DNA from: Pseudomonadota bacterium
Lineage (GTDB): Bacteria > Pseudomonadota > Gammaproteobacteria > Burkholderiales > Burkholderiaceae_B
Assembly: GCA_023427085.1 (NCBI GenBank)
Contig: JAEZBO010000241.1
Location: forward strand, 256-64,255
Direction of reading: 5' to 3'
Length of the DNA: 64,000 nucleotides
Of the stretch, positions 1 through 63,992 are shown piece by piece. The notes below the pieces were generated by a model. The model made no database searches, had not been told where the DNA came from, and was given only the letters and a program-made list of their open reading frames with translations. Made by a program: the position numbers and the translations under genes. How positions within the stretch are numbered: the stretch's first letter is position 1; each line of letters begins with the position of its first letter.

Positions 1-612
1 CGCCAGCACGAACCGGCGCTGGCGGCGCTCAGGCAGGCCGTGCCCGCGCAGGCCTGCATCGGCTTGCCCGGGCGCTTGCTGGCCCAGCTCGAATCGGTCG
101 AGACCAGCCAGGGCGTGATGTTCGTCGTGCAGCCGGCCGCGCAGCCACTGCCGGTGCGCCTGGGCGACAACAGCGTGTGGCTGGACCGGGTACAGGATCC
201 CGGCAACGTCGGCACGCTGCTGCGCACCGCCGCGGCCGCCGGCATCCGTCAGGTCTTGCTGTCGAGCGGCTGCGCCGCCGCGTGGTCACCCAAGGTCCTG
301 CGCAGCGGCCAGGGCGCGCACTTCGCGCTGAGCCTGTACGAACAGGTCGACCTGCACGAGGCGCTGGCCCGGCTCGACATCCCGCTGGCCGTCACCACGC
401 TGGACAGCGCCGAGGATCTCTACCAGGCCGAGCTGCCGCGCGATTGCGCCTGGGTGTTCGGCCACGAAGGGCAGGGCGTCGAGGCGCGCCTGCTGGCGCA
501 CGCCGGACTGCGGCTGCGCATTCCGCACCAGTTCGACGCGGTCGAATCGCTCAATGTCGCGGCCGCCGCGGCAGTCTGCCTGTTCGAGCAGCGCCGCCGG
601 CTGCTGGCCTGA
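1..612 (+). CDS. TrmH/SpoU-family RNA 2'-O-methyltransferase, 5' end cut by window edge
   Basis: Frame 1 is open from nt 1. Translation carries SpoU-type motifs DRVQDPGNVGTLLRTAAAAG, VFGHEGQGV and ESLNVAAAAAVCLFE. Stop at 610-612. Confidence 0.8.
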   Translation, partial: RQHEPALAALRQAVPAQACIGLPGRLLAQLESVETSQGVMFVVQPAAQPLPVRLGDNSVWLDRVQDPGNVGTLLRTAAAAGIRQVLLSSGCAAAWSPKVLRSGQGAHFALSLYEQVDLHEALARLDIPLAVTTLDSAEDLYQAELPRDCAWVFGHEGQGVEARLLAHAGLRLRIPHQFDAVESLNVAAAAAVCLFEQRRRLLA

Positions 613-724
613 CGCGCCAGCGCCCCGCGGCGGCGCGACATCTGAACCCTGACGCAGCATACGTGCGGCCTTATCCCTGCGGCCGTGCCCCAGCGGCCGT
701 GCCGGCCCGACCCGACCGCCGGCT

Positions 725-766
725 GACACCCGCTTCGTGAAACCCGCTACACGAAACCCGCTTCAA
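725..766. repeat. Three tandem 14-bp units (GACACCCGCTTCGT / GAAACCCGCTACAC / GAAACCCGCTTCAA)
   Basis: Read directly in the convergent gap between the methyltransferase gene and ppsR. The last unit overlaps the ppsR stop. The unit resembles the array at 9137-9237. Confidence 0.6.
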
Positions 767-1596
767 TAAGAGCCGCGATCGAGCTTGACCTCTTGCAGCA
801 CCGTCGTCGAGATCTCCTCGATCGACTTGGTGGTGGTCGACAGCCACGCAATGCCTTCGCGGCGCATCATGCGCTCGGCCTCGGCCACTTCTTCGCGGCA
901 TTGCTTGAGCGAGGCATAGACGCTGCCCGGACGGCGCTCGTTGCGCACCTCGGACAGGCGTTCGGGCTGGATCGACAGGCCGAACAGCTTGGAGCGGTAG
1001 GGCGCCAGCGTGGCTGGCAGCGTGCCGCGCTCGAAATCGTCCGGGATCAGCGGGAAGTTGGCGGCCTTGATCGCGTACTGCATCGCCAGGTACAGGCTGG
1101 TCGGGGTCTTGCCGCAGCGCGACACGCCCACCAGGATGACGTCGGCCTGCGCCAGCCCGGTGACGAACTGGCCGTCGTCGTGCGCCAGGCTGAAGTTGAT
1201 CGCCTCGATGCGGTTGCGGTATTTCTCGGTGGTGGCGCCGGTGTGCGAGCGGCCGATCGAGTGGCTGGACTTGACGCCCAATGCCTGCTCGAGCGGCGCG
1301 ACGAAGGTCGCGAACAGGTCCAGCAGCACGCAGTTGGCCTGGCGCACCCGCATCAGGATCTCGGGATTGACCAGCGTCGTGAACACGATGGCCTGCTGCC
1401 CGGTGTCGAGGGCGACCTGGTCGATCCGCTCGGCGACCTGTCCCGCTTTTTCCAGCGAGTCGGTGAAGGGAATCCGTGTCTGCACGAATTCGACGGCCTC
1501 GAATTGCGACAGCACCGAGTGGCTGAAGGTCTCGGCGGTGATGCCGGTACCGTCCGAGACGATGAAGACAGTGCGTTTCTGAACAGGGGTATTCAT
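763..1596 (-). CDS. ppsR: PEP synthase regulatory protein (pyruvate, water dikinase kinase/pyrophosphorylase, DUF299)
   Basis: 277 aa with [17 protein letters not shown]-terminus and P-loop [12 protein letters not shown]. Divergent from ppsA, the conserved arrangement. Confidence 0.9.
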
Positions 1597-1757
1597 GTGT
1601 AAAAAAGCCCGGGTGTCGAGGAGGGACGGTACAATCTGAACCCGAAAGTCACCCCCCGGGTACCTGCAAGGCCGGTTCGGTCAGCACGGCGTCCATGCCC
1701 AAGCATAGACGGCGCCTGCTGACCAAACTCGCTTTCTCTCATTGTAAAGGTGACTTA

Positions 1758-9110: not shown

Positions 9111-9136
9111 GCTGCTGCTGTATCAAGCCGCGGCAA

Positions 9137-9237
9137 GAAACCGCTGCACAAACCGCTGCACAAACCGCTGCACAGAAGCGCTACACGAAACCGCTGCACT
9201 AAGCCGCCGCACCGAGCCGCCGCACTAAGCCGCCGCA
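9137..9237. repeat. Tandem array of about 8 units of 12-13 bp (GAAACCGCTGCAC, degenerating to TAAGCCGCCGCAC)
   Basis: Read directly. Intergenic, downstream of rnfH and about 200-300 bp upstream of the acyl-CoA dehydrogenase start. Confidence 0.7.
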
Positions 9238-13217: not shown

Positions 13218-14195
13218 TCAGGACGGCTTGACCAGCGGGTAGGGCAGGGGTCCGACCGTGATCGACGGGCCGTCGGCGGCGCCAGCCCGCAGGTCGCGGC
13301 CTTCTAGCGCATCGAGCGGGGCTTCGAACAGCAGCGCGTTGCCGGCCAGATCGATGATGCGTCCGCAAGGCTCGTCGGGGCGCGCGCTGTCGTAGACATC
13401 GGCGCCCGCGGCCGGTTGCGGCGCGTCGCTGGCGACGTGGCCGTAGGCCATGCGGCGCTTGACGGTGCCGCGGTAGTGGCTGCGCGCGACGATTTCCTGG
13501 CCGGGGTAGCAGCCCTTGCCAAAACTGACACCGTCGATCAGGTCGAGGTTGACGGTCTGCGGGATGAACAGGTCCTGCGTTGCCGTGGCGATCCACGGCA
13601 GGCCGGCGGCCAGGTCGCCGCGCTGCCAGCCGGCCGGGTCCGACTGCGGCAGGCCCAGCGCGGCCCCCGCAGCCTGCTCGGCGGCCTGCACCTGCCCGGC
13701 GCTGGCGATCCACCACCAGCGGGCGACGCCGCTCGGACCGGCCGGCGCGGCGATCCAGGTGCCGCTGGGCAGCTCGCTGCGCTGCCACGGCAGCACGCCG
13801 AGCTCGCCGCCCAGCGGCTGCTGCAGGGCCTGGCGGGCGGCGGCGTCGGCCTGCACGCCGTGCACCGCCAGATCGCTCAGCGCCAGCGTGACCTTGGCCC
13901 GCAGCACGAACATGCGCAGGCGCCGGATCAGCGCTTCGGCCAGGTCGCGGCGCACCAGCAGGCAGACCGTGCCGTCGGCCGGCTGGGCATGCCACATGAC
14001 CAGCGTGGCCAGCAGCCGGCCCTTGGCGGTGCAATAACCGGCCAGCCGCGCGGCGCCCGGCCCCAGGCCGGTGACGTCGTGGGTCAGTTGGCCGTGCAGG
14101 AAGCTGGCGGCGTCGGCGCCGCTGACGCTGATCACCGCGTAGTCGGGCAAGGGCGCGAACAGGCTGGAGGAAATGTCGGAAACGGTGGTGGTCAT
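13218..14195 (-). CDS. ygfZ: Folate-binding tRNA-modification/Fe-S repair protein YgfZ
   Basis: ATG at 14195 (the ORF-track ORF extends to 14279). Aminomethyltransferase-like fold with the signature KGCYPGQEIVAR. Confidence 0.8.
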   Translation of the reverse strand: MTTTVSDISSSLFAPLPDYAVISVSGADAASFLHGQLTHDVTGLGPGAARLAGYCTAKGRLLATLVMWHAQPADGTVCLLVRRDLAEALIRRLRMFVLRAKVTLALSDLAVHGVQADAAARQALQQPLGGELGVLPWQRSELPSGTWIAAPAGPSGVARWWWIASAGQVQAAEQAAGAALGLPQSDPAGWQRGDLAAGLPWIATATQDLFIPQTVNLDLIDGVSFGKGCYPGQEIVARSHYRGTVKRRMAYGHVASDAPQPAAGADVYDSARPDEPCGRIIDLAGNALLFEAPLDALEGRDLRAGAADGPSITVGPLPYPLVKPS

Positions 14196-20828: not shown

Positions 20829-21632
20829 CTAGGAAGCCGGCAGGTAAGCCGGGCGCAGGATGCCGCGCAACTGCGCGTACGGGATGGTCAGTTCGGGCTG
20901 CCCATGTGAATACGGCGCGATCACATAGACGTCGTACTTGACGATCAGGCCGTCGGGGCCCAGTGCGACGTTGTCGGTGGGGGCGAACGGCCACATCTTG
21001 GCGTAGGCGGCCGGGTCACGCCGGGCGTCGGCGTTGCCTTCGAGCCAGGCCGCATGGGCGCGCGTCAGCGCCTCGACGAATTGGGGCTGGCGGCCGGGTT
21101 CGAGCAGGTCGCCCAGCGTCAGCACCCGGCCGGCCTGGCGATCCCAGTTCAGGTAGCGCGTGGCCGGAATGCCGTGCGCGCCACCGGTATAGACGCCGCT
21201 GATCAGCTCGACCACCGCCAGCGACGGCGTCTGCCGCGTCACCCGCGCGCGCAGCACGGTGTTCTCGCCGCTGCGGGCGGTGCGCCAGTAATACTGTTCG
21301 AACTCCTCCAGCGTGCGGTAGGGATGCACGATGTTGGTGTCGAGCCCGGTCATCGCCGCCAGCGACTCGTCGACCAGCGCCGTCAGGCGCCGCTCGTCCG
21401 GGAACGCGACGCTGTCCAGGTCGATGTAGGGGCACTCTGCACCGCGGCAACCAGGCTGCGTGCGTTTGTACTGGATGCGCTGGGTGCGCAGATCGCTCGC
21501 TTGCGCCGGTGCATTGGCGGCGGCGCCCGGGCCGGGCAAGGTGATGTTGGCGGGCGGCGAACTGCCGCAGCCGGCCAGCGCCAGCAGCAGGGCGGCGCAG
21601 GGCAGGGCGGCCGCGCGATTGAAGCGAGTCAT
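20829..21632 (-). CDS. Lipoprotein with DUF3298/DUF4163-like (RsiV-type) domains
   Basis: 267 aa. Lipobox LALAGCGS and SGVYTGGAHGI motif characteristic of DUF3298. Confidence 0.6.
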   Translation of the reverse strand: MTRFNRAAALPCAALLLALAGCGSSPPANITLPGPGAAANAPAQASDLRTQRIQYKRTQPGCRGAECPYIDLDSVAFPDERRLTALVDESLAAMTGLDTNIVHPYRTLEEFEQYYWRTARSGENTVLRARVTRQTPSLAVVELISGVYTGGAHGIPATRYLNWDRQAGRVLTLGDLLEPGRQPQFVEALTRAHAAWLEGNADARRDPAAYAKMWPFAPTDNVALGPDGLIVKYDVYVIAPYSHGQPELTIPYAQLRGILRPAYLPAS

Positions 21633-22493: not shown

Positions 22494-22765
22494 GCCAGCG
22501 CCCTGCGGATCGCGACCGCGACGGCCTCGGCCGAGAAGCCGAACATCTCGACGTCCTTGGGCAGGGCCAGCTGGATCGCCAGCGCGATCTCGGTCTCACT
22601 GGCATCGGCCGCCAGGCCTTCGAGCGCGGCGTCGATCTGCGCCAGCGCCTCGGGCGGCTCGAGGAAAAAGTCGCCGCTGATCTGGACGCGCGTCAGCTTG
22701 CCGTCGTCGACCTCGAGGTCGGCGACCACCAGCTTGCCGCCGGGTACCTTGAATTCACCGTGCAT
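22490..22765 (-). CDS. Stand-alone lipoate-protein ligase accessory (LplA C-terminal-type) domain protein, LplB-like
   Basis: 91 aa from ATG at 22765 (the ORF-track ORF extends to 23242). KVPGGKLVVADLEVDDGKLTRVQISGDFFLEP resembles the LplA C-terminal domain. 4-nt ATGA overlap with the catalytic gene. Confidence 0.65.
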   Translation of the reverse strand: MHGEFKVPGGKLVVADLEVDDGKLTRVQISGDFFLEPPEALAQIDAALEGLAADASETEIALAIQLALPKDVEMFGFSAEAVAVAIRRALA

Positions 22766-25992: not shown

Positions 25993-26556
25993 TCAGCGGG
26001 CCGCCTGGCCCTGCCTGGCGCGCCAGTCGCGCACGGCCTGCAAGGTGTTGCTGACGTGCTGGTGCGGGTTGCCGCTGGCGTATTCGTAGACGATCCGGCC
26101 CTCGGGCGAGATCACGTACGAGACCCGGTTGGCCACACCGGGCAGCACGGCGTGCGCCACGTCGTAGTCCTTCATGATGCGATGGTCGCTGTCGGACGCG
26201 ACCGCGAACTTGCCGCCGCAGGCGCTGACGGAAAACTTGCCGAGGGTCTGGATGTCGTCGCCCGAGACGCCGACCACGGTGGCGCCTTCGGCCTGGTAGT
26301 CGCCGATGGCCTGCGCGAAGCTGTTGGCCTCGATGGTGCAACCCTGCGTAAAGGCAGCCGGATAGAAATAGAGCACGACCGGTCCCTTTTTCAGCGCCTC
26401 GGCCAGCTTGAACTCGAAGGGTTGGCCGGCCAGCGCGGCCTGCGCGGTGAAATCGGGCGCTTGCGCGCCGACCTCGAGCGCGGCGTGGGCGGGCAGGGTG
26501 GCCAGCGGCAGCACCAGGGCCAGGGCGAAGGCGTAACGGCGCGGCAGCAGGGACAT
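25993..26556 (-). CDS. Exported peroxiredoxin (AhpC/TSA-Bcp family)
   Basis: 187 aa. Signal peptide, APDFTA, and YFYPAAFTQGCT peroxidatic-Cys motif. Confidence 0.8.
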   Translation of the reverse strand: MSLLPRRYAFALALVLPLATLPAHAALEVGAQAPDFTAQAALAGQPFEFKLAEALKKGPVVLYFYPAAFTQGCTIEANSFAQAIGDYQAEGATVVGVSGDDIQTLGKFSVSACGGKFAVASDSDHRIMKDYDVAHAVLPGVANRVSYVISPEGRIVYEYASGNPHQHVSNTLQAVRDWRARQGQAAR

Positions 26557-27927: not shown

Positions 27928-29337
27928 TCAACGTGACCCCTGCAATATCGACCTTGCATCCATCAGGCGCATCCGGAACGCCTTGCCCTTGATCGAGCCG
28001 GCCGCCAGCCGCGCGCGCGCCTGCTCGGCGACCTGCCGATCGAGCGCCACGTAGGACACGTTTTCGCCGACGCTGATCTTGCCGACCTGCTCCTTGCTCA
28101 GGCCCGCATCGCCGGTCAGCGCGCCCAGCAGGTCGCCGGGACGCAGCTTCTGTTTCTTGCCGCCCTGGATGCACAGCGTCACCCGCGGCGCGCGCATCGG
28201 CCCGCCGCCCTTGGGTGCCAGCGCGCCGATATCGGCCCACTTGAGCGGCGTGCCCAGCATCTTTTCGACCAGCGTGGCCCAGCGCATCTCGTTGGGCGCG
28301 CACAGGTTCAGCGCCAGGCCGGGCTTGTCGCCACGGCCGGTGCGGCCGATGCGGTGCACGTGGACCTCGGTGTCCTTGGTGACGTCGACGTTGATGACGG
28401 TGTCCAGCCCGGTGATATCCAGGCCGCGCGCCGCCACGTCGGTCGCCACCAGGATCGCGCAACTCTGGTTGGCGAACTGCACCAGGATCTCGTCGCGGTC
28501 GCGCTGCTCGAGCTCGCCATGCAAGGGCAGGGCGCTGTAACCGGCCTGGTCCAGGAACAGCGCCAGCTCGTCGCAGGCCGCGCGGGTGTTGCAGAAAGCC
28601 AGCGTCGATTCGGGCCGGTAGTGCGCCAGCAGCTTGAGCACGCTGTCGTAGCGCGCCTCGCGCGGGATCTCGAAAAAGATCTGCTCGATGCGGCTGTCGT
28701 CGTGCAGCGCCTCGACCTTGACCTCGATCGGCCGGTTCAGGAAACGCAGGCCGATGCCGCGCGCCGGACCGGCATAGGTCGCCGAGAACAGCAGGGTCTG
28801 GCGCGGTGTCGGGCAATGGCTGGCGATGATCTCGATCTGTTCGCCGAAACCCATGTCGAGCATGCGGTCGGCCTCGTCCAGCACCAGCATGCGCAAGGCA
28901 CCGAGCTCGAGGCTGCCGCGCGACAGATGGTCGGCCAGCCGGCCCGGCGTGCCGACCACGATGTGCGCGCCGTGCGCCAGCGACTCGGCCTGCGGCCGCA
29001 GCGGCGTGCCGCCGCACAGGCTGACGATCTTTATGTTGCCGCTGGCCCGTGCCAGCCGGCGCAGCTCGGCGGCGACCTGGTCGGCCAGTTCGCGGGTCGG
29101 GCACAGCACCAGGCCCTGCGGGTCGAAATTGCGGGCGTCCAGGCCGGCCAGCAAGCCGAGCCCGAACGCGGCGGTCTTGCCGCTGCCGGTCTTGGCCTGG
29201 GCCATCACGTCGCGGCCGGCCAGGATGTGCGGCAGGCTTTCGGCCTGGATCGGCGTCATGGCGGTAAAGCCCAGCGTGCTCAGGTTGTCGAGCAGCACGG
29301 GGGGCAGGGGCAGGCGGGAGAAGGCGTTGTCGGTCAC
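27928..29337 (-). CDS. dbpA: ATP-dependent DEAD-box RNA helicase DbpA
   Basis: GTG at 29337 gives an N-terminus (VTDNAFSRLPLPPVLLDNLSTLGFTAMTPIQ) colinear with E. coli DbpA. AKTGSGKT, DEAD, SAT, and HRIGRTGR motifs. C-terminal DbpA RNA-binding domain. No obvious SD. Confidence 0.85.
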   Translation of the reverse strand: MTDNAFSRLPLPPVLLDNLSTLGFTAMTPIQAESLPHILAGRDVMAQAKTGSGKTAAFGLGLLAGLDARNFDPQGLVLCPTRELADQVAAELRRLARASGNIKIVSLCGGTPLRPQAESLAHGAHIVVGTPGRLADHLSRGSLELGALRMLVLDEADRMLDMGFGEQIEIIASHCPTPRQTLLFSATYAGPARGIGLRFLNRPIEVKVEALHDDSRIEQIFFEIPREARYDSVLKLLAHYRPESTLAFCNTRAACDELALFLDQAGYSALPLHGELEQRDRDEILVQFANQSCAILVATDVAARGLDITGLDTVINVDVTKDTEVHVHRIGRTGRGDKPGLALNLCAPNEMRWATLVEKMLGTPLKWADIGALAPKGGGPMRAPRVTLCIQGGKKQKLRPGDLLGALTGDAGLSKEQVGKISVGENVSYVALDRQVAEQARARLAAGSIKGKAFRMRLMDARSILQGSR

Positions 29338-30539: not shown

Positions 30540-31966
30540 TGGCGGCCCGCCCCGACGCCGCGTCGCCCGGCCCGCGCGCCTACTCGCTGCGGCGCCGGCT
30601 GACGCTGGCCACGCTGGGATCGAGCATCCTGTGCGCGCTGGTCAGCCTGGCGATCGTGGTCTGGGTGGCCTGGGACGAGACCAGCGAAGTCTTCGACGAT
30701 GCGCTCGAAGAGGGCGCGCGGCTGACGCTGGCGCTGGGCGCCTCGATGGCGCAGGAAGGCCTGCTGGACGACGCGCCGTCGGTCGACGAACCGCGCAAGC
30801 GCGTGCGTCTCTATTACCAGTTGATCTCGGATCGCGGCGAGGTCGTGCGCCGCGCCGAGGGCGCGCCGTCGCGGCCCTTCGTCGATCCCGACAAACGCGA
30901 CGATCGTTACTACAACGTCTGGGAAGACGGCGAGCTGTGGCGCGTCTACGTGCTCGAGCACGAGGATCCGGACTTTTCGGTGCAGGTCGGCCAGCGCTGG
31001 GAAGCGCGCAACGAGCTGCTGGTCGAAACCATCGAAGCGCTGGTCTGGCCGGCGCTGGCGATCTGGCTGCTGCTGGGCCTGTTCAACTGGTGGGCGATCC
31101 GGCGCCTGCTGCGGCCGCTCGAACAGGTCGCGCGCGGCATCGCCACCAAGTCGCCGCAAGACCTCGGCCCGGTGCCCGACAGCGGCCGCGTCAAGGAGCT
31201 GCGGCCGGTGGTGCAGGCGCTGAACCAGTTGCTGGCGCGGCTCTCGGGCGCGCTCGAGGCCGAACGGCGCTTCACCGCCGATGCCGCCCACGAGCTGCGC
31301 ACGCCGCTGGCCGCGCTGGGCTCGAAGATCCAGCTGATGCAGCGCAGCCACGCCGGCGCGGTGCCGGCACTGGACGGCGACCTGGCCGCGCTGCGCAAGG
31401 ACGTGGCGCGCAGCACCGCGCTGGTCGAGAACCTCTTGGTGCTGGCGCGGCTCGATGCGCACGACGCGCCGCAGGGCAGTGCCGGCTATACGCCACAGCC
31501 GGTCAAGCTGCCCGAGCTGCTGCGCGAAGCCGTGTTGGCCTGCCAGGCGCAGGCCGACGACCGCGGCGTGCGCCTGCAGGTGCAGTGCGACGCGATGACG
31601 GTGCCGGGCCAGCATCCCTTGCTGTTCACGGCGCTGCGCAACCTGATCGACAACGCGGTGCGCTACGGCAGGCAGGGCGGCCAGGTGCGCGTGTCGGCAC
31701 GGCGAGAGCAGGGCGGCCATCGGCACGGCAGGGTGGTGCTCGAGGTCTGCGACGACGGCCCCGGCGTGGCGCCGGCCGAGCTGGAACGGTTGACGCAACG
31801 TTTCTATCGGGTGCTGGGCAACCAGGCCAGCGGCAGCGGACTGGGCCTGTCCATCGTCGCGCGCATCGCCGCGCTGCACGGCGCCGAGCTGTCCTTGGGC
31901 GCCGGGCGGGACGGGCAGGGACTGTGCGCGCGGCTGGTATTCGAACCGGACGCGCCGGCTCGCTAA
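30539..31966 (+). CDS. Two-component sensor histidine kinase
   Basis: 475 aa. Two TM segments, H-box FTADAAHELRTPL, N-box LIDNAVRYG, and G-box GSGLGLSIV. The start overlaps the regulator stop. Confidence 0.9.
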   Translation: MAARPDAASPGPRAYSLRRRLTLATLGSSILCALVSLAIVVWVAWDETSEVFDDALEEGARLTLALGASMAQEGLLDDAPSVDEPRKRVRLYYQLISDRGEVVRRAEGAPSRPFVDPDKRDDRYYNVWEDGELWRVYVLEHEDPDFSVQVGQRWEARNELLVETIEALVWPALAIWLLLGLFNWWAIRRLLRPLEQVARGIATKSPQDLGPVPDSGRVKELRPVVQALNQLLARLSGALEAERRFTADAAHELRTPLAALGSKIQLMQRSHAGAVPALDGDLAALRKDVARSTALVENLLVLARLDAHDAPQGSAGYTPQPVKLPELLREAVLACQAQADDRGVRLQVQCDAMTVPGQHPLLFTALRNLIDNAVRYGRQGGQVRVSARREQGGHRHGRVVLEVCDDGPGVAPAELERLTQRFYRVLGNQASGSGLGLSIVARIAALHGAELSLGAGRDGQGLCARLVFEPDAPAR

Positions 31967-33454: not shown

Positions 33455-33482
33455 AATACGCATAATGTATATTATGAGAAGT
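33455..33482 (+). other. dif: Candidate dif site (XerC arm AATACGCATAA, core TGTATA, XerD arm TTATGAGAAGT)
   Basis: 18 consecutive bp (CGCATAA-TGTATA-TTATG) are identical to E. coli dif GGTGCGCATAATGTATATTATGTTAAAT. Intergenic and AT-rich. Lies between the last + strand GGGCAGGG (31913) and the first CCCTGCCC (35437) of a complete KOPS-like polarity switch. Confidence 0.75.
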
Positions 33483-33489
33483 CGCGTAT

Positions 33490-34008: not shown

Positions 34009-34110
34009 GGTCGAGCTCCTTTGTGCTTGTGAGGTGTTCCCATCGTAGAAGCCTCACATTGGTTCGTGAACCCTCTTTTCCTTGCATGAATTGGTCAATA
34101 GAATCGACCA

Positions 34111-35061: not shown

Positions 35062-35099
35062 TCGGCTATCGACTGCCGTGGCGACCGCGCGCCGGGCGA

Positions 35100-36146
35100 T
35101 CATCCAGGCGCCCCGCCCTGCTTCACCGGCCATGTATCCGCCAGCCGGTAACCCGCCGGCCAGGGATCGGCCGGATCGAGCAGATGTTGATGAATGCCGG
35201 TCACCCAGGCGCGGCCGCTGATCTGCGGGCGGATCGCCGCGATGCCGCCGATCGCCGTGGTGCCCAGGATCCGCCCATGGAATTCGGAGTCGATGATGGA
35301 CACGCCGGTATAGCGGTCGCCGACCGCCATCAGGCCGCGGTGATGCAGCAGCGCCATGCTGGCGCAGACCGCCGTGCCGGTCGGCGACCGATCCAGCTTG
35401 CCGGGCTGGATCGAGACCACCGATTTGGCCCGCAGGCCCTGCCCGTCGCGATACAGCGGACCGGCGAACAGGCAGAACGAGTGATGCTGCCAATCCGCGC
35501 GCTCGGGATGATGAAACACCAGTTGCTGGTTGGCCGCGTTCGTGATTCGGACGCCCAGCTCGGCCAGTTGCCTGGCGTGGCGGGCCTCCAGCTGCAGGCC
35601 CAGCGCCTGCGCGTCGACCACCACGAAACTGTCGCCGCCGTAGGCGGTGTCGACGACGATCGGACCCAGACCGGGCACGTCCAGCGAGACGTCGAGCTGC
35701 CCGGCGAACGACGCGACGTTCTCGACGGTGATGCGTTCGGCCTTGCCGGCGGCTCAATCGGCGCGCACGCGCACCAGTCCGCCGGGCGCCTCGAGCACCA
35801 TCTCGGTGACGGGCTCTTGCATGGCGACGATGCCTGTGTCGAGCAGGACCGTGGCGACGCAGATCGCATTCGATCCCGACATCGGCGGCGTGTCCTCCGG
35901 CTCCATGATGATCCACGCGGCGTGTGCGTCGGGATGCCGGGGCGGCACCAGCAGGTTGACGTGCCGGAACACGCCGCCGCGCGGTTCGTTGAGCACGAAG
36001 TGTCGCAGTGTCTGGTCGTGGGCGATCCAGCTGCGCTGTTCCCACAGCGTGTCGCCGGGCGGCGCGGCGACGCCGCCCACGATGACGTCACCGACCTCGC
36101 CTTCCGCGTGGCAGGACACGACATGGATCACTTTGGTGGACCGCAT
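35100..36146 (-). pseudogene. Proline racemase/hydroxyproline epimerase-superfamily gene interrupted by one in-frame TGA (35754-35756)
   Basis: ORFs 35754-36146 (N-terminal part) and 35100-35678 (C-terminal part) are in the same frame. The 25 codons between them are open (AAGKAERITVENVASFAGQLDVSLD). Joined length of about 348 codons fits the family. Confidence 0.7.
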
Positions 36147-40480: not shown

Positions 40481-40491
40481 CCCTGCCCGCC

Positions 40492-43373: not shown

Positions 43374-44137
43374 GCGGCGGTCCAGCCGGCGTCGAGCATC
43401 AGCGCGCTGCCGGTGACCAGGCTGGATGCATCGCCGGCCAGGAACACCACGGCGCCCATGACCTCGTGCAGCTGGCCGACACGGCCCAGCGCGTTGCGCG
43501 CGCAGACCCAGTCGTGAAAGCCCGGCTGCGCCAGCATCGGCGCGGTCATCGGGGTTTCGATGAAGGTCGGGCAGATCGTGTTGACGCGGATACCCGACGG
43601 GCCGAGCTCCCAGGCCAGCGCCTTGGTGAAGCCTTCGATCGCGTGTTTGCTGGCGCAATACAGCGTGCGGCGCGGACTGCCGACATGGCCCATCTGCGAG
43701 GACACGTTGATCAGCGAGCCGGACCGCTGCTCGGCCAGCAGGCGGCGCGCCACCGCGCGGCTGACCGTGAAGCTGGCCTTGACGTTGAGGTCGAACACCG
43801 CGTCGAAGTCCGGCTCGGGCTGGTCGACCATCAGCTGCGGCCGGTTCATGCCGGCGTTGTTGACGAGGATGTCGAAGACCCTGCCCTGCCCCAGCTCGCG
43901 GTCCACCGCGGCGCTGTCGGTCACGTCCAGCACCCGCCATTCGCAATCGATGGCCTCGGCGCGCAGCGCCTCGCAGACCGCGACCAATTCGGCTTCGCGC
44001 CGCGCCGCCACCGTCACGTGCGCGCCGGCGCGGCCCAGCGCCGCGGCGGCCGCCAGGCCGATGCCGCCACTGCCGCCGGTGACCAGCGCGCTGCGCCCGT
44101 CGAGCCGAAAGCTCGGGCCTTGGGGCAACGGCATCAT
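43370..44137 (-). CDS. Short-chain dehydrogenase/reductase (SDR)
   Basis: 255 aa from ATG at 44137. [12 protein letters not shown], and YCASK catalytic motif. ATGA overlaps with both neighbours. Confidence 0.85.
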
Positions 44138-47636: not shown

Positions 47637-48425
47637 ATGCTGAAATTCTCGGCCAACCTGTCCATCCTGTTCACCGAATTGCCGTTCGCCGAACGCTTCG
47701 CCGCCGCCCGCCAGGCGGGTTTCAGCGCGGTCGAATGCTGGTTTCCGTACGAACACGCCAACGCCGAACAGACCGTCAGACTGCTGGCCGACAACGGCCT
47801 GACCATGGTCGGCATCAATTCGCCGTGGGGCGCCGACGGCCAGTGGGGCCTGGCCGCCCTGCCCGGCAGCGAAGCCGCCTTCGAACAGTCGCTGCGCCAG
47901 ACGCTCGACTATGCACAGGCGATCGGCCGCCCGGCGGTGCACGTGATGGCCGGCCTGGCCGGCCACATCCCGCGCCACGAGGCGCAGCGCTGCTACGTCG
48001 CCAACCTGCGCCGCGCGGTGCAACTGGCGCAGGGCAGCGGCATCACGCTGGTGATCGAGCCGCTCAACAGCCGCGACCGGCCGGGTTATTTCCTGAACAG
48101 CGTCGAACAGGCCGCCGCCTTGATCGAACACGAGGGCCTGGACAGCCTGCGCATCATGTTCGACTGCTATCACACGCAGGTCCAGGAAGGCGACCTGATC
48201 ACCCGGCTGCGCCGCCATTACGACAAGATCGGCCACGTGCAGATCGCCGGCGTGCCGGCCCGCGGCGAACCCGACCGCGGTGAACTCAATTACGCCGAAG
48301 TGTTGCGCGAGCTGAGCCGGCTGGGCTGGCAGGGCCACGTCGGCGCCGAATACAAACCCACCGGCGCCTCGGCCGACAGCTTCGGCTGGTTGCGCGCGTG
48401 GCGGGACGACGGTATCGCCGCCTAG
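47637..48425 (+). CDS. otnI: Hydroxypyruvate isomerase-family protein (2-oxo-tetronate isomerase-like)
   Basis: ATG at 47637. MLKFSANLSILFTELPF start and TIM-barrel xylose-isomerase-like pattern (IEPLN, HVQIAG). Confidence 0.75.
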   Translation: MLKFSANLSILFTELPFAERFAAARQAGFSAVECWFPYEHANAEQTVRLLADNGLTMVGINSPWGADGQWGLAALPGSEAAFEQSLRQTLDYAQAIGRPAVHVMAGLAGHIPRHEAQRCYVANLRRAVQLAQGSGITLVIEPLNSRDRPGYFLNSVEQAAALIEHEGLDSLRIMFDCYHTQVQEGDLITRLRRHYDKIGHVQIAGVPARGEPDRGELNYAEVLRELSRLGWQGHVGAEYKPTGASADSFGWLRAWRDDGIAA

Positions 48426-48492: not shown

Positions 48493-49524
48493 ATGACCTT
48501 CAAGACCTTCAACCCCTGGATCGGCCGCCTGGCCGCCGGCGCAATCGCCGTCTGCCTGGCCGCCGGCGCCTCGGCCGCCGAGTTCCAGTCGCGCACCTTC
48601 AAGCTCGGCCACGTGATCGCCGACGATCACCCGGCCGCGCTGGGCGCCAAGCGCTGGGCCGAGCTGCTCGACAAGGGCAGCGACGGCAAGTTCAAGGTGC
48701 GCGTGCACGGCAACGGCAGCATCGGCGGCGACGTGCAGATGACCTCGGCCGTGCAGGGCGGCGTGCAGGAGCTCGGCATCATCACGTCCTCGCCGATGGC
48801 CAGCGTGGTGCGCGAGATCGGCCTGCTCGACCTGCCCTTCACGTTCCAGACCGCGCAGGAAGTCGACGCGGTGCTGGCCGGCAAGGTCGGCGAGTCGATC
48901 GCCGCCAAGATGGAAGAAAAAGGCATCGTGCTGCTGGGCTGGATGGAGAACGGCTTTCGCAGCATCACCAACAGCCGCCGCGCCATCACCAAGTTCGAGG
49001 ACATGCAGGGTCTGAAGATCCGCGTGCTGCAGAACCCGGTCTACATCGAGACCTTCAACACGCTGGGCGCCAACGCCGTGCCGATGCCCTTCCCCGAGGT
49101 CTACACGGCGCTCGAATCGCGCGCGGTGGACGGCCAGGAGAACCCGCTGGGCACCATCAACACCTCCAAGTTCAATGAAGTGCAGAAGTACCTGAGCGTG
49201 ACGCGCCACACCTACACGCCCTACGTGGCGGTGATCAGCAAGCGCGTCTGGGACCGCCTGTCGCCGGACGAGCAGAAGCTGATGCGTGAAAGCGCCGCCG
49301 AAGCCTCGGCCTACCAGCGCCAGGTGGCTCGCGACAGCGAAGCCAAGTTCCTGGCCGAGCTCAAGGAGCGCGGCATGGAAGTCAACGAACTGTCGGCCGA
49401 CGAAGCTGCCCGCATGCGCGACAAGCTCAAGCCGGTGATCGACAAGTTCTCGTCCGATCTGGGCGGCCCGCTGGGCGCCGAGATGCTGGCCGAGATCGAG
49501 AAGGTCCGCGGCGCGGCCAAGTAA
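48493..49524 (+). CDS. dctP: TRAP transporter substrate-binding protein (DctP family)
   Basis: ATG at 48493. Signal peptide and DctP-family pattern (FKLGHVIADDHPA, ENGFRSITNS). Confidence 0.85.
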   Translation: MTFKTFNPWIGRLAAGAIAVCLAAGASAAEFQSRTFKLGHVIADDHPAALGAKRWAELLDKGSDGKFKVRVHGNGSIGGDVQMTSAVQGGVQELGIITSSPMASVVREIGLLDLPFTFQTAQEVDAVLAGKVGESIAAKMEEKGIVLLGWMENGFRSITNSRRAITKFEDMQGLKIRVLQNPVYIETFNTLGANAVPMPFPEVYTALESRAVDGQENPLGTINTSKFNEVQKYLSVTRHTYTPYVAVISKRVWDRLSPDEQKLMRESAAEASAYQRQVARDSEAKFLAELKERGMEVNELSADEAARMRDKLKPVIDKFSSDLGGPLGAEMLAEIEKVRGAAK

Positions 49525-54835: not shown

Positions 54836-56152
54836 ATGATCTGGATGGATGCGATGGCTCCCCGTTCCCTGCCCTCCTCGACCCCCCCTGGCCCGCAAGC
54901 GGGCAACACCACTTCCGTCATTCCCTGGCCGACCTGGCTGCGGCTGGCCTGGGCCTGGCTGGCCGTCGCCGCCTTCGGCCTGTGGGGCCACGCGTGGCTG
55001 GCCGCGCCGCTGGCGCCGACCACCGCGATCGTGTGTTTCGCGGTGCTGTTCGTGACCATCGTGGCGGCCTCGTTCGGCGTCGTCAAAGAGGCCGATCTGC
55101 TCGCCCATCGGCTCGGCGAGCCGTACGGCACGCTGATCCTGACGCTGTCGATCGTGCTGATCGAGGTGATCCTGATCGCCTCGGTGCTGCTGGGCCCCGG
55201 CGAGTTTCCGACCATCGGCCGCGACTCGATCTTCGCGGTCATGATGATCATCGTCAACCTGGTGATGGGCCTGTGCCTGGTCGTCGGCGGCCTTCGCCAC
55301 GGTGAACAGGAATACAACGCCCAGGGCACCAGCGCCTATCTGTCGATGATCATGTTGCTGACCGCGCTGGCGCTGGTGCTGCCCAACCAGCTGAGCGGCG
55401 CGGGCCAGTTCAGCGGCACGCAGAGCTGGGCCATCGCCGGCGTGACGGCGCTGCTGTACGCGGTGTTTCTGGCTTTGCAGATGGGCAGCCAGCGGCGCCT
55501 GTTCATCCAGCCCGCGCCAGGCTCGATGTGGGTGCCGGCGCGGCCCGGCGGCGTGGTAGGCGCTGCCGTCGCTGCCCCGGCGGCGCCTGCTGCCTCGGTT
55601 GCGCCGGTCGCTCAAGCTGCGCCGGTTGGTCATGCCGCGCCGGTTGCCCCAGTCACCTCGGTTGCTCCCCTTGCCGCGGTTGCCCCGGCCGCCAGCCGCG
55701 CCGGCCTCTGGCTCAGCACGATCCTGCTGCTGGCGATGATCGTGCCGATCGTGCTGCTGGCCCACCACCTGGCCATCGTCATCGACTATGGCGTGATGAC
55801 CGCGGGCGCGCCGGTCGCGCTCAGCGGGCTGCTGATCGCCATCATCGTCTTCACGCCCGAATCCATCACGGCGGTCAAGGCCGCCCGCAACGACGAAATG
55901 CAGCGCGCGATCAACCTGTGCCTGGGCGCCTTCGTGTCGACGGTCGGCCTGACGGTGCCCGCCGTACTGATCATCGGCCAGGTCACCGGCAAGACCGTGA
56001 CGATGGGCATTTCGGGGCTGGAGACCGTGCTGCTGGTCGCCACCGTGCTCCTGTCGCTGTTGTCGTTCAAGGGGCAGCGCACCTCGGTGCTGCAGGGTTA
56101 CATGCATCTGGTGCTGTTCCTGGTGTATGGCTTCCTGCTGTTCAGCCACTGA
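54836..56152 (+). CDS. chaA: Ca2+/H+ antiporter (CaCA/ChaA family) with an Ala/Pro/Val-rich central insert
   Basis: 438 aa. Alpha-repeat motifs (GEPYGTLILTLSIVLIEV... and TPESITAVKAARNDEMQRAINL) in two hydrophobic halves. Confidence 0.75.
   Translation: MIWMDAMAPRSLPSSTPPGPQAGNTTSVIPWPTWLRLAWAWLAVAAFGLWGHAWLAAPLAPTTAIVCFAVLFVTIVAASFGVVKEADLLAHRLGEPYGTLILTLSIVLIEVILIASVLLGPGEFPTIGRDSIFAVMMIIVNLVMGLCLVVGGLRHGEQEYNAQGTSAYLSMIMLLTALALVLPNQLSGAGQFSGTQSWAIAGVTALLYAVFLALQMGSQRRLFIQPAPGSMWVPARPGGVVGAAVAAPAAPAASVAPVAQAAPVGHAAPVAPVTSVAPLAAVAPAASRAGLWLSTILLLAMIVPIVLLAHHLAIVIDYGVMTAGAPVALSGLLIAIIVFTPESITAVKAARNDEMQRAINLCLGAFVSTVGLTVPAVLIIGQVTGKTVTMGISGLETVLLVATVLLSLLSFKGQRTSVLQGYMHLVLFLVYGFLLFSH
55598..55687 (+). 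repeat. Five in-frame 18-bp tandem units inside chaA (VAPVAQ/AAPVGH/AAPVAP/VTSVAP/LAAVAP)
   Basis: Units read directly at 55598, 55616, 55634, 55652 and 55670. In frame with the chaA start (offset 762 nt). Confidence 0.7.
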
Positions 56153-56416: not shown

Positions 56417-57958
56417 ATGGCAGGCAGAATCTTGATCGTCGCGGCGGAAGCCTATCCGCTGGCCAAGACCGGCGGGCTGGCCGATGCGATCAGCGGGCTA
56501 TATCACGCGCTGGCACAGGCCGGGCAAGAGCTGCGGCTGCTGATGCCGGCCTACCCGGGCGTGCTGTCGCAGGTCCGGCCCATGGCGCAATGGCAGATGG
56601 GCGGCCTGCCGGGCGGGCCGGCGCGGCTGATCGATGCCCATTGCAAACGGACCGGCATGGGCTGCCTGTTGCTGGACAACCCTGAACTGTTCGACCGGAC
56701 CGGCCTGTATGTCGACGACGAAGGCGAACCCTACCCCGACAATGCCCAGCGCTTTGCCGCGCTGGCGCACGCGGCGGCCGCGGTGGCACAAGGCCTGTCA
56801 GGGCTGGAGCGGCCCGACGTGGTCCATGCGCATGACTGGCATGCCGCCCTGGTGCCGCTGCTGGTCAAGGTGGCCACCGGCGGACGCGTCAAGACGGTGT
56901 TGACCATCCATAACCTGGCCTTCCAGGGCGTCTTCGACGTCGCCCAGCTCAACAGCCTGCAACTGCCCGCCCATGCCTACCAGGCACGTGGCCTGGTCGC
57001 GCAGGACCGCATCAACTTCATGCTGGCCGGCATCACCCATGCGGACAGGGTCACCACGGTCAGCGAGCAGTATGCGCGTGAGATCCTGACGCCCGAACGC
57101 GGCTGCGGATTGCACGAAGCCTTGCAGGCACGCGGCGATGCATTCGGCGCGATCGCCAACGGTATCGACACCTCCATCTGGTCGCCGATGAAGGACACGC
57201 ACCTGGGCCGCCACGGCTTCAACGCCGAGCACATGGTCAACAAGGCGCACTGGAAGATGCGCTTGCAGAAGGATCACGGCCTGCCGGTCGACCCCGATGC
57301 ACTGCTGGTGACGTCATGCTGCCGGCTGACCGGCCAGAAGATGGTCGACCTGACCATCGCCGGGCTGCCGGCCGCGCTGCAAGACCACCCGACCTTGCAG
57401 TTCGTCGCGCTGGGCCGTGGCGAGCGACGCTACGAACGGGCGCTGCTGGCGCTGGCTGCCGCGCATCCGCGCCGCGTCGCGGTACAGATCGGCTATGACG
57501 AAGCCTCGGCGCATCGCCTGCTGGCTGGCGCCGATGTGTTGTGGCATCCCAGCCGCTTCGAGCCCTACGGCCTGAGCCCGCGTTACGCGATGCGTTATGG
57601 CACGCTGCCGGTCGCCACGGCGGTCGGCGGGCTAGTCGATGCCATCGAGGACCCGGGCCTGCTGGCGCGCGGCCAGGCCACCCAGCGCGCCAACGGTCTG
57701 CTGTTCGACGCATCGGCCCCCGAGGCGATGAGCGCCGCACTCGGCCGGGCACTGCGTCTCTACGAAGATACGCAGACCTGGGACACGATGCGGCGCAATG
57801 CGATGGCGCAGGACCACAGCTGGACGGGAGCGGTCGAGGCTTATCTGCAGTTATTCGCGGCGCTGTGCGGCCGCGTCTATCAGCGTCATCCAAACACCGC
57901 GCTGGCGCCCGGCCGGCCCCCGGCCAGAGAGCCGGCCTTGCAGGCCGCGGTGCTGTGA
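56417..57958 (+). CDS. glgA: Glycogen (starch) synthase
   Basis: ATG at 56417. ILIVAAEAYPLAKTGGLADA N-terminus (KTGGL motif) and GT5/GT1 C-terminal pattern (PSRFEPYGLS). Confidence 0.85.
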   Translation: MAGRILIVAAEAYPLAKTGGLADAISGLYHALAQAGQELRLLMPAYPGVLSQVRPMAQWQMGGLPGGPARLIDAHCKRTGMGCLLLDNPELFDRTGLYVDDEGEPYPDNAQRFAALAHAAAAVAQGLSGLERPDVVHAHDWHAALVPLLVKVATGGRVKTVLTIHNLAFQGVFDVAQLNSLQLPAHAYQARGLVAQDRINFMLAGITHADRVTTVSEQYAREILTPERGCGLHEALQARGDAFGAIANGIDTSIWSPMKDTHLGRHGFNAEHMVNKAHWKMRLQKDHGLPVDPDALLVTSCCRLTGQKMVDLTIAGLPAALQDHPTLQFVALGRGERRYERALLALAAAHPRRVAVQIGYDEASAHRLLAGADVLWHPSRFEPYGLSPRYAMRYGTLPVATAVGGLVDAIEDPGLLARGQATQRANGLLFDASAPEAMSAALGRALRLYEDTQTWDTMRRNAMAQDHSWTGAVEAYLQLFAALCGRVYQRHPNTALAPGRPPAREPALQAAVL

Positions 57959-60845: not shown

Positions 60846-61787
60846 TCAGCCGCCGCGCGGGTGATGCTGCGCATGCAGCGTCTTGAGCCGTTCGCGCGCC
60901 ACGTGGGTATAGATCTGCGTGGTCGAGATGTCGGCATGGCCCAGCAGCAACTGCACCACGCGCAGGTCGGCACCGTGATTGACCAGATGGGTGGCGAAGG
61001 CATGCCGCAGCACGTGCGGCGAGATCGGCGCCTGGATCTGCGCCAGCTTCGCGTATTTTTCGACGATCAGCCAGAAATTGCGACGATGCATGCCCTCGCC
61101 GCGCACCGTCACGAAGAGTGCATCGCTGACCTTGCCGGCCAGCAGCAGCGGCCGCGACTCTTTCAGGTAGCGGTCGATCCAGTGCGCCGCTTCGGCACCC
61201 AGCGGCACCAGCCTGTCCTTGCCGCCCTTGCCGGCCACCACCCGCAGCACCCCTTCGTTCAGGCTGACGTGCAATAAGCCCAGGCCGACCAGTTCGGACA
61301 CCCGCAGGCCGGTCGCGTACAGCGTCTCGAGCATGGCGCGGTCGCGCAGCCCCAGTTCGGTCAGCACCTGCGGCGCGGCCAGCAAGGCGTCGACCTGCGC
61401 CTCGGACAAGGTGTGCGGCAGGCGGCGCGGCTGCTTGGCCGCGCGCACCGTCAGGCAGGGGTCGTGCTCGACCCGATGGCCGCGCAAGGCCCACTGGAAA
61501 TAGCGGCGCAGCGCCGACAGGCGCCGATTGGCGGTGGCCGGGCGGGTCTGCGCGTGCATGGCAGCGAACCAGCGCGAGATGTCGGCCGCGTCGGCCTGCG
61601 GCAGGCAACGGCCGCCGGCCTGCTGGCGCAGCCAGACGTCGAAGCCGGCCAGGTCGTTGCGGTAGGAGTCGAGCGTGTTGCGCGACAGGCCGTCCTCGAG
61701 CCACAGCGCGTCGAGAAACTCGGCGATGGAAGGGTCGACGTCGTTACGGCTGTTCAGCGACGGCGCGCGGTGAGAAGTATCGGGCAC
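60846..61787 (-). CDS. xerD: Site-specific tyrosine recombinase XerD
   Basis: 313 aa, colinear with E. coli XerD as I recall it: FLDALWLE, LYATGLRVSELVGL, HVLRHAFATHLVNHGADLRVVQLLLGHADISTTQIYTHV. Confidence 0.9.
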   Translation of the reverse strand: MPDTSHRAPSLNSRNDVDPSIAEFLDALWLEDGLSRNTLDSYRNDLAGFDVWLRQQAGGRCLPQADAADISRWFAAMHAQTRPATANRRLSALRRYFQWALRGHRVEHDPCLTVRAAKQPRRLPHTLSEAQVDALLAAPQVLTELGLRDRAMLETLYATGLRVSELVGLGLLHVSLNEGVLRVVAGKGGKDRLVPLGAEAAHWIDRYLKESRPLLLAGKVSDALFVTVRGEGMHRRNFWLIVEKYAKLAQIQAPISPHVLRHAFATHLVNHGADLRVVQLLLGHADISTTQIYTHVARERLKTLHAQHHPRGG

Positions 61788-61860: not shown

Positions 61861-61899
61861 TCGGCCCGTCGGCGCATGCATGGCGCGCCGACGGGCCGA
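61861..61899. terminator. 15-bp perfect-stem hairpin downstream of the DJ-1/PfpI gene
   Basis: TCGGCCCGTCGGCGC-atgcatggc-GCGCCGACGGGCCGA. No U-tract, so it could also be a protein-binding palindrome. Confidence 0.4.
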
Positions 61900-61930
61900 C
61901 TTGCCGGAGCGCCTTGGCGCCGCCGCCGGC

Positions 61931-62485
61931 TTACTGGGCGTCTGGCGTGGCGCCCAGCAGTTCGATGAAGGCCTTGTTGAAGGCCGGCAGGTCGTCGGGC
62001 TTGCGGCTGCTGATCCAGTTGCCGTCGCGCGCGACTTCCTGATCCACCCAGTTGGCGCCGGCGTTGCGCAGATCGTCCTTGAGCGAGGGCCAGCTGGTCA
62101 GCGTGCGGCCATTGACCAATTCGGCCGACACCAGCAGCCAGGCACCGTGGCAGATCACCGCCAGCGGCTTGCCGCTTTTTTCGATGCTGCGCACGAAGGC
62201 CTGGGCCCGCGTGTCCATGCGCAGTTCGTCCGAATTGACCACGCCGCCGGGCAGCAGCACGGCCGTGAAGTCGGCCGGGTCGGCCTGCGCCCAGGTCAGG
62301 TCCACGTCGAAGGTATCGCCCTTCTTGTCATGATTCATGCCCTGGATGGGCTTTTTCTCCGCTGACACGATGGCGGTGCGCGCGCCGGCCTTGTGCAGCG
62401 CGTCGCGAGGCGACTCCAGCTCGGCCTGCTCGAAGCCATCGAGCGCCAGAATGGCGATGTGGTGATCCTTCAGGGAAAGTGCCAT
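61931..62485 (-). CDS. DJ-1/PfpI-family protein (type 1 glutamine amidotransferase-like)
   Basis: ATG at 62485. HIAILALDGFEQAEL and the nucleophile-elbow AVICHGAWLL. Confidence 0.85.
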   Translation of the reverse strand: MALSLKDHHIAILALDGFEQAELESPRDALHKAGARTAIVSAEKKPIQGMNHDKKGDTFDVDLTWAQADPADFTAVLLPGGVVNSDELRMDTRAQAFVRSIEKSGKPLAVICHGAWLLVSAELVNGRTLTSWPSLKDDLRNAGANWVDQEVARDGNWISSRKPDDLPAFNKAFIELLGATPDAQ

Positions 62486-62609
62486 GGTGAAAAGACTCCT
62501 GGTGATGTAGGACAGCCCGATCCGACCGGCTGTCTGCACCACGAAGTTTGTCCGCCCACCCTGCCCCATGCCTTCAGCATCGGCAAGCAAGCGTAAAGCG
62601 ATATTTCGC

Positions 62610-63992
62610 TCAGCGCTCGTTGCGGACCCGGCGCACCTGAGGAAGGGTCACCGGCCCGGCTTGATTGTCCCAACTGTTACGGATGTAGGTCACCACGGCC
62701 GCCACGTCGGCATCGTCGAGCACGTGCGCGAACGGCGGCATGCCGTGCGGGCGCGGCTGGTGCACGGTGGCCGGCGCAAAGCCGCCCGCCAGCACCACGC
62801 GGATCGCATTGACCGGTTCGATGGCGGTCACGGTCGGATTGCCGGCCAGCGGCGGCCAGGCCTGCGCCACGCCCTGCCCATCGGCCTGGTGGCAGGCAGC
62901 GCAGAACTGCGCGTAGTGCTTGCGGCCCAGCGCCATGACGCCCGGGTCGGGCGCCGCGGCAGCGGCACGATCCAGTCCGGCCGGCGGCAGGCTTTTCAGG
63001 TAGCGCGCCATCGCCTGCGCGTCCTCGGCGCTGGCCCACTGCAGGCCGTTGCGCACCGACTCGGCCATCGGCCCCAGCGCATACGAATGCCGCGCCATGC
63101 CGCTGCGCAGCAGGTCGGCGATGTCCTGTTCGCTCCAGCGGCCCAGGCCGACGCCGTCGTCGCCGGTCAGCGGCGGCGCGTACCAGTTCTGCGCCGGAAT
63201 CACGCCGCCCTGCAGCGGTTTGCCGCCTTGCAGCGCACCCAGGCGGCCGCGCGCGGTATGGCATTCGGCGCAATGCGCCACGCCTTCGACCAGGTAGCGC
63301 CCGCGCAGCCATTGCGGATCGTCGGCCGCGCCGGCGACGCCTTGCGGAAGAGCAGCGGCGGCGTCGAAATACAGCGCCCGCCACAACGCGATCAGCGGCC
63401 GCTGGTTGTACGGGAACGCCAGGCCGTGTGGCGTGCTGGGCTGCTTGACCGCCGGCAGGCTGCGCAGATAGGCAAAGATGGCATCGGCGTCGTCACGGCT
63501 GAGGTGGCGATAGCTGGTGTACGGGAACGCCGGATACAACAAGGCCCCGTCGGGACGTTTGCCATGCCGCAGCGCGCGCCAGAAATCGTCGGCGCTCCAG
63601 TTGCCCAGGCCGTACTCCGGATCGGGTGTCAGGTTGGGGCCGAAGAAGTCGCCGAACGGCGTCGGGATCGCGCGGCCGCCGGCATAGGCCTGACCAGCGG
63701 GCGCGGTGTGGCAACCCATACAATTGCCCACCGCGGCCAGGTAGCGGCCGCGCTCGATCCGCTCGGCGCTGCCGCCGGCGGGCGGTGGCTTGGCGGTCGT
63801 CGGTGACGCGTTGGTGGTTGATGCGGCGGTGGTGGTTGATGCGGCGGTCGCGGCGGTCGCGGCTGACGCGGCTGACGCGGCGGCGTCGGTCGGCGGGCCA
63901 CCGAGCGTGGGCAGCGCCGGCAGCGCGGCGTGAGCGGCCGCCGGCGCCGCCGCCGGCATCGTAGCGGGCTCGCGCGTGCCGAGCCAGAACAT
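62610..63992 (-). CDS. Tri-haem cytochrome c subunit (dehydrogenase-associated type); 5' end close to the window edge
   Basis: Three CXXCH motifs (CMGCH, CAECH, CAACH) with spacing typical of alcohol/gluconate dehydrogenase cytochrome subunits. The true start may lie beyond nt 64000. Confidence 0.75.
   Translation of the reverse strand: MFWLGTREPATMPAAAPAAAHAALPALPTLGGPPTDAAASAASAATAATAASTTTAASTTNASPTTAKPPPAGGSAERIERGRYLAAVGNCMGCHTAPAGQAYAGGRAIPTPFGDFFGPNLTPDPEYGLGNWSADDFWRALRHGKRPDGALLYPAFPYTSYRHLSRDDADAIFAYLRSLPAVKQPSTPHGLAFPYNQRPLIALWRALYFDAAAALPQGVAGAADDPQWLRGRYLVEGVAHCAECHTARGRLGALQGGKPLQGGVIPAQNWYAPPLTGDDGVGLGRWSEQDIADLLRSGMARHSYALGPMAESVRNGLQWASAEDAQAMARYLKSLPPAGLDRAAAAAPDPGVMALGRKHYAQFCAACHQADGQGVAQAWPPLAGNPTVTAIEPVNAIRVVLAGGFAPATVHQPRPHGMPPFAHVLDDADVAAVVTYIRNSWDNQAGPVTLPQVRRVRNER
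63813..63884 (-). repeat. In-frame tandem repeats in the cytochrome c N-terminal linker (2 x 18 bp, then 9-bp units)
   Basis: GGTGGTTGATGCGGCGGT twice (63813, 63831), then CGCGGCNGN units. Encodes AASAASAATAATAASTTTAASTT. Confidence 0.65.

Follow-up and report, generated by a model that had tools for sequence, protein, structure and literature searches.

We analyzed a 64-kb stretch of metagenomic DNA (hereafter the window; GC content 68.6%), which makes up almost all of a 64,185-bp metagenome contig (ENA ERZ27269073), for the arrangement of FtsK-orienting polar sequences (KOPS), octamers of consensus GGGNAGGG, around a candidate dif site. An exact search of both strands returns 19 matches to GGGNAGGG, nine on the plus strand to the left of approximately 33.4 kb and ten on the minus strand to the right of it, with no opposite-sense copy on either arm (two-sided binomial p ~4e-6 for the 19:0 split); 16 of the 19 matches read GGGCAGGG. 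The last plus-strand copy ends at 31920 and the first minus-strand copy starts at 35437, and within this 3.5-kb switch gap lies a 28-bp dif sequence, AATACGCATAATGTATATTATGAGAAGT, at 33455..33482 on the plus strand. A convergence of the motifs on a dif candidate, as put forward in an initial sequence-only reading of this DNA, is thus confirmed. The arrangement very probably represents the known FtsK/KOPS-XerCD/dif architecture of the dif region of a chromosome, with the octamers of both arms converging on the recombination site.

The left arm opens with a GGGCAGGG octamer at 469..476 (+), which points right to dif from the sense strand of a plus-strand gene. Two overlapping octamers (GGGTAGGGCAGGG; 13237..13249, with starts at 13237 and 13242) follow approximately 20 kb from dif, antisense to a minus-strand gene, as are the GGGCAGGG copies at 21600..21607, 22559..22566, 26491..26498, 28525..28532 (here within a dbpA-like helicase gene) and 29302..29309, all on the plus strand. 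A plus-strand histidine-kinase gene carries the last left-arm octamer (31913..31920, +) on its sense strand, at a distance of 1,535 bp from dif. On the right arm, where every copy is on the minus strand, the first octamer (GGGCAGGG, 35437..35444) occurs 1,955 bp away from dif in sense orientation to a minus-strand gene, the second (GGGCAGGG, 40481..40488) is intergenic, and two overlapping octamers (GGGCAGGGCAGGG on the minus strand; 43879..43891, with starts at 43879 and 43884) are found approximately 10 kb from dif. The copies at 47857..47864 (GGGCAGGG), 49087..49094 (GGGAAGGG), 54867..54874 (GGGCAGGG) and 56729..56736 (GGGTAGGG) are antisense to plus-strand genes, while those at 62559..62566 and 62872..62879 (both GGGCAGGG) occupy the sense strand of minus-strand genes. 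The sequence-only reading had listed nine plus-strand and ten minus-strand copies; the exact search places them at identical positions, and the recount revealed no opposite-orientation copy that had been missed. Each arm contains one overlapping pair, an arrangement that behaves as a strong FtsK loading site in E. coli experiments.

At one motif per 3.4 kb, KOPS are also more frequent than the composition of the window accounts for. Dinucleotide shuffles (n=100) yielded 9.84 +/- 2.97 GGGNAGGG matches over both strands, and 19 were reached in a single shuffle out of 100; the original estimate that their number is about what base composition predicts must hence be replaced by an approximately twofold over-representation. 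Defining the toward-dif strand as the plus strand of the left arm and the minus strand of the right arm, Markov models of order 2-4 predict ~2 GGGCAGGG copies on this strand, where 16 are observed, and ~1.1-1.3 on the other strand, where there are none. Enrichment on the permissive strand therefore contributes no less to the signal than the lack of copies on the other strand does. The total absence of the opposite sense, which had been singled out as the strong signal, is real, but it does not carry the weight by itself.

The dif sequence is made up of two 11-bp arms, the XerC arm AATACGCATAA and the XerD arm TTATGAGAAGT, separated by the 6-bp spacer TGTATA; it presents partial dyad symmetry and fits the proteobacterial consensus. 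The site is intergenic, between a gene for an NAD-binding dehydrogenase (32416-33348, -) and a lipocalin-like gene (33490-34008, -), and when the window is compared with four reference dif sequences, no other site comes within 9 mismatches of any of them. The window contains no second dif or pseudo-dif and no integrase adjoins dif, so that there is no sign of a dif-integrating element (integrative mobile element exploiting Xer, IMEX). Compared with E. coli dif, 22 of the 28 positions are identical, the 6 mismatches fall in the outer arms, and the central 18 bp (CGCATAATGTATATTATG) are the same. The dif of B. pertussis Tohama I (AATTCGCATAATGTATATTATGTAAAGT), which shares with the window an assignment to the Alcaligenaceae, is identical to AATACGCATAATGTATATTATGAGAAGT at 25 of 28 positions; positions 4, 23 and 24 differ, and the conserved A25 is present in the window dif. 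Position 4 sits near the outer end of the XerC arm, and positions 23 and 24 of dif have been described as variable (Carnoy & Roten 2009; PMC2731167). At these last two positions (window 33477-33478) the XerD arm TTATGAGAAGT reads AG, and all 67 metagenome matches to a pattern allowing W and R at 23-24 have TA, with none having AG. Four species-representative genomes share the 23-bp dif core used in the search, and the identical 28-mer was found among them only in Orrella sp. JC864, the other three carriers being alphaproteobacterial metagenome-assembled genomes.

Since the window originates from a metagenome contig, a switch of strand could in principle mark an inversion breakpoint or an assembly chimera. 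This has next to no probability here, given that a canonical dif sits exactly in the switch gap and that the same sequence was recovered in other assemblies. A second ENA assembly (ERZ28593428) carries the same contig at 64,194 bp, and an independent run (Logan SRR13358354) yields a 5.8-kb contig that covers 30137-35970 at 100% identity, running across the switch, which shows that the junction is not an assembly chimera. The two ENA contigs (64,185 and 64,194 bp) break at the same two places, which suggests repeats or strain variation at both ends.

The same polarity recurs in relatives. Around the shared dif core of the four genomes, GGGNAGGG occurs 10 times toward dif and once away from it, and the Orrella locus contributes a 4:0 ratio toward dif over 7.9 kb. 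Scanning metagenomes for dif sites of the B. pertussis-type family gave 67 loci, where 89 copies of the motif are oriented toward dif and 6 away from it. Many of these loci overlap, and they were therefore clustered into 33 groups sharing no 25-mers with each other or with the window; the de-duplicated clusters retain 43 motifs toward dif and 4 away (p=3e-9). Among the informative clusters, 17 of 18 agree with the expected orientation and none disagrees. When relatives with a GC content of at least 60% are considered, GGGCAGGG again ranks first among octamers for polarity, at 36:2.

Strand polarity of a G-rich word might also arise as a by-product of compositional skew, of codon usage combined with gene orientation, or of chance. 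Some features of the window lean in this direction: octamers with at least 6 G point toward dif in 63% of cases overall (382:225), and 11 of the 16 genic motifs are antisense to their gene, where CCCTGCCC can be read as Leu-Pro codons. However, the full motif is oriented toward dif in 100% of its copies, versus 59-63% for near variants and G-rich words. One-mismatch variants, excluding the N position, split 71:49 (Fisher p=1.6e-4 against 19:0), and the split of the G-rich octamers likewise differs from 19:0 (Fisher p=3e-4), which identifies the polarity as specific to the full motif. Of 3,026 testable octamers in the window, moreover, no other is as strongly polarised around dif as GGGCAGGG, at 16:0. 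Gene calls, derived from third-position GC and reliable at 68.6% GC, reveal a mild bias in gene orientation (16.8 kb plus and 12.3 kb minus on the left arm, 11.7 kb plus and 14.7 kb minus on the right), and with respect to these genes 5 of the 19 motifs are sense, 11 antisense and 3 outside called genes. The 16.8 kb of left-arm plus-strand genes contain no CCCTNCCC, and neither do the right-arm minus-strand genes, so that motif orientation tracks the arm and not the gene. Together with the recurrence of the pattern in 33 unrelated contig clusters, these motif-specificity, gene-strand and relatives tests reject the by-product explanation, to which we assign a negligible chance.

Two further candidate indicators of the junction were discarded. 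A log-odds strand classifier based on 6-mers and 7-mers, trained on KOPS-masked sequence flanking dif in relatives, followed the coding strand when used as a junction locator: its score is positive over the blocks of plus-strand genes at 1-20 kb and 48-52 kb and peaks at 19.7 kb, making it uninformative on the replichore junction. The Chi-like words GTGCTGG and GCTGGTGG are polar, but with 23 sense and 3 antisense copies they follow the genes.

The window also encodes one of the proteins expected to act at dif. A gene at 60846..61787 (-), 27.4 kb from dif, specifies a 313-aa tyrosine recombinase with Pfam domains Phage_integrase and Phage_int_SAM_1. The protein scores 368.1 bits with the TIGR02225 XerD equivalog model, above the cutoff of 329.6, and 303.9 with the XerC model, below the cutoff of 335.15; among solved structures, its closest relative is E. 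coli XerD (1a0p, E=1e-86). By analogy with E. coli, V. cholerae and P. aeruginosa, the gamma domain of FtsK would read GGGNAGGG KOPS and load in one orientation, pumping DNA so as to travel to the polarity flip, where the 28-bp dif sits. At dif, again following the same three species, FtsK would stop and activate XerD, here encoded 27 kb away. On each arm, selection may retain KOPS on the permissive strand and purge them from the other, producing the observed 9:0 and 0:10 distribution.

Several points weigh against this reading of the window, and they concern both statistics and scope. Bonferroni correction leaves the unbiased octamer ranking, taken alone, with modest support (3e-5 x 3,026 ~0.09). 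The polarity is seen over the 64 kb around dif only. Neither ftsK nor xerC lies in the 64-kb window, and recognition of the motif by the FtsK of the host would follow by analogy with the species named above. GC skew, in turn, has the expected sign within the window and is weak (+0.006 on the left arm, -0.008 on the right); it does not attain significance (block permutation p ~0.24; Wilcoxon over 4-kb bins p=0.28), and the cumulative curve peaks at 43877 instead of at dif. The strength of the case resides in the combination of a prior hypothesis, the coincidence of the switch with dif and the replication of the pattern in relatives.

The proposal that GC skew be used to verify the terminus thus succeeded in part when run in the window, as the sign came out as expected while significance was lacking and the maximum lay 10 kb from dif; as an independent locator of the terminus, GC skew was set aside, being of the right sign and non-significant at the 64-kb scale. 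When GC skew is computed at third codon positions by gene strand, the expected difference emerges on the left arm only. Pooling the dif flanks of relatives reveals a G-rich toward-dif strand, with a skew of +0.022 and 59 of 73 arms positive (p=3e-8, from loci that were not de-duplicated). The corresponding toward-dif skew of the window (+0.007) is approximately threefold weaker than that of the pooled relatives (+0.022), possibly through recently acquired or rearranged DNA near the terminus, or through noise.

These data bear on which terminus the window contains. The KOPS/dif junction directly marks the dimer-resolution, or segregation, terminus, and this part of the earlier claim that the window spans the replication terminus stands. 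The other part, that replication forks normally meet in or near the window, we consider likely by inference, the in-window GC skew being non-significant. On a chromosome with unequal arms, the KOPS/dif junction could lie here and the forks meet elsewhere, in keeping with the non-significant skew and with its cumulative maximum 10 kb from dif. There is precedent in P. aeruginosa PAO1-UW, where replication ends opposite oriC, ~0.8 Mb from dif (dif at 2.4 Mbp, marker-frequency minimum at 3.2 Mbp), and KOPS and GC skew nonetheless switch at dif (PMC6199493). Against such a separation, GC skew switches near dif across genomes (PMC6199493), the dif of B. pertussis is located 1,345 bp from the GC-skew maximum (PMC2731167), the toward-dif strand is G-rich in the pooled relatives, and asymmetric chromosomes are a minority. 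We accordingly view fork meeting outside the region as an unlikely, though not far-fetched, outcome. A core pattern for the Ter sites of Tus/Ter traps, of enterobacterial type, gives 2 matches at 2 mismatches in the window versus 6.5 expected; as Tus/Ter traps are not expected in this clade, their lack is no argument against a terminus. The window likewise contains no real MatP-type matS array, with 4 of 6 matS-like matches being copies of a 19-bp tandem repeat.

The gene content of the window points to its replicon of origin. The left arm contains the core chromosomal genes ppsA, smpB, mltG/yceG, tmk, holB, tatD and gdh, with smpB, tmk, holB, mltG and ppsA all within 33 kb of dif. Each plasmid record covers at most 14% of the central 23 kb, leaving a plasmid origin of the stretch unsupported, and no rep or par genes were seen in the window annotation and domain scans; tRNA genes and Rfam families were also not found in the window. 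The core genes of the left arm and the plasmid coverage of at most 14% make the main chromosome the likely source. Among genomes, Orrella sp. JC864 (Alcaligenaceae, Burkholderiales) comes closest, matching the window in patches of 82-85% nucleotide identity along the locus. Members of the Alcaligenaceae generally have a single chromosome. An alternative source would be a second chromosome or chromid equipped with a dif and a KOPS polarity of its own: dif and KOPS occur on secondary replicons in Vibrio and Burkholderia (PMC2533119), Burkholderia mallei chromosome 2 has a dif (PMC2731167), and chromids of Variovorax and Cupriavidus match some window genes at 75-80% at the nucleotide level. Set against the five core genes close to dif, the presence of xerD, the lack of plasmid-like coverage and of rep/par genes, and the affiliation with Orrella, this origin appears very improbable. 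The stretch is thus best described as the dif region, likely on the main chromosome, of an uncultured member of the Alcaligenaceae (Betaproteobacteria) with affinity to Orrella.

Another family of words, independent of KOPS, is also polarised around dif. With KOPS masked, GAGGGCG occurs 14 times toward dif and once away in the window, with plus-strand copies at 1408, 7575, 15334, 16209, 21647, 30054, 30710 and 30857 and minus-strand copies at 34622, 47592, 47609, 53703, 54042 and 56293; 6 of the toward-dif copies are sense and 6 antisense, a polarity independent of coding strand. The shorter AGGGCG, masked in the same way, splits 56:17 in favor of dif. The gaps in which their orientation switches, 32622-34122 for AGGGCG and 30857-34622 for GAGGGCG, both bracket dif. 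This agreement supports the location of the junction independently of KOPS and, like the G-rich toward-dif strand of the relatives, favors a fork-meeting zone here. In the dif flanks of relatives these are the top polar 6-mer and 7-mer (AGGGCG 223:113, GAGGGCG 67:15), alongside AGAGGGCG (18:0) and GAGGGCGG (32:5). Such words could be architecture-imparting sequences (AIMS), a Chi-like site for RecBCD, degenerate KOPS or a second FtsK guide motif; that the family constitutes a functional selected signal in Burkholderiales-type genomes, and not a compositional echo, seems doubtful.

Several other features of the window deserve mention. A gene of the proline-racemase family (PF05544; 35100-36158, -) presents an in-frame TGA at codon 134 (stop at 35754-35756; ...VRVRAD*AAGKAERITV...). 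The contig in question is present in three assemblies, the Logan match being 100%, and ENA and Logan call this gene as two open reading frames of 130 and 192 aa; its active-site motifs, MSGSN and DRSPTGT, are of the Ser/Thr type, and the interrupted gene is probably a pseudogene. The 19-bp tandem repeat (GACATCGCCACGCGCGAGT; 5.6 copies, 76% matches) spans 40370-40474 between convergent genes and adjoins the KOPS at 40481; one of its copies fits the enterobacterial matS consensus GTGACRNYGTCAC by chance. A second tandem array, with a 13/26-bp period (AAGCCGCCGCACT, ~8.8 copies), is intergenic at 9125-9237, upstream of acyl-CoA dehydrogenase and enoyl-CoA hydratase genes.

As a whole, the locus is a clean but ordinary case of an already known architecture, and its anatomy shows no departure from the known system. 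Mildly new elements are the uncommon AG at dif positions 23-24 shared with Orrella, the location of xerD 27 kb from dif and the replicated polar word GAGGGCG. The practical value of the result lies in assigning the contig to the dif/terminus region of a chromosome from the Alcaligenaceae and in orienting both replichores, which helps binning, scaffolding and coverage-based estimates of growth rate. It also adds one more lineage with a conserved E. coli-type KOPS word and dif core, and it neither opens nor settles a biological question.

The closest reference is the FtsK/KOPS-XerCD/dif system of E. coli (Bigot 2005; Levy 2005). Experiments defined GGGNAGGG as the KOPS of E. coli, and the FtsK proteins of V. 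cholerae and P. aeruginosa recognise it too; across most Proteobacteria, GGGCAGGG behaves as a skewed AIMS word (PMC3384302). The window shares with E. coli the same consensus, mostly in the form GGGCAGGG, and the same complete polarity near dif, where the KOPS skew of E. coli equals 1.0 (PMC3384302 Table 1). It differs in its higher motif density (1 per 3.4 kb, versus 1 per 12.6 kb in E. coli; PMC3384302), as expected at 68.6% GC, and in being without Tus-type Ter sites, a real matS array, ftsK and xerC. P. aeruginosa, for which an FtsK-gamma/KOPS co-crystal is available, likewise combines high GC, GGGNAGGG and KOPS converging on dif; its genome-wide KOPS skew is ~82% (153:34, 271:57; PMC6199493), whereas the value reported here refers to the 64 kb around dif only. 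The AIMS concept (Hendrickson & Lawrence 2006; PMC5993296) describes skewed octamers co-oriented with replication, and sets of them have been compiled for Betaproteobacteria (PMC5993296). GAGGGCG and AGGGCG in the window fit this concept, which designates a statistical class without a single reader protein and entails a rise in density toward the terminus. Finally, the SRS/SpoIIIE system of B. subtilis and the KOPS/FtsK system of L. lactis use motifs that differ from those of the window, GAGAAGGG (SRS, SpoIIIE recognition sequence) and GAAGAAG (KOPS), respectively, and follow the same logic of polar motifs converging on dif.

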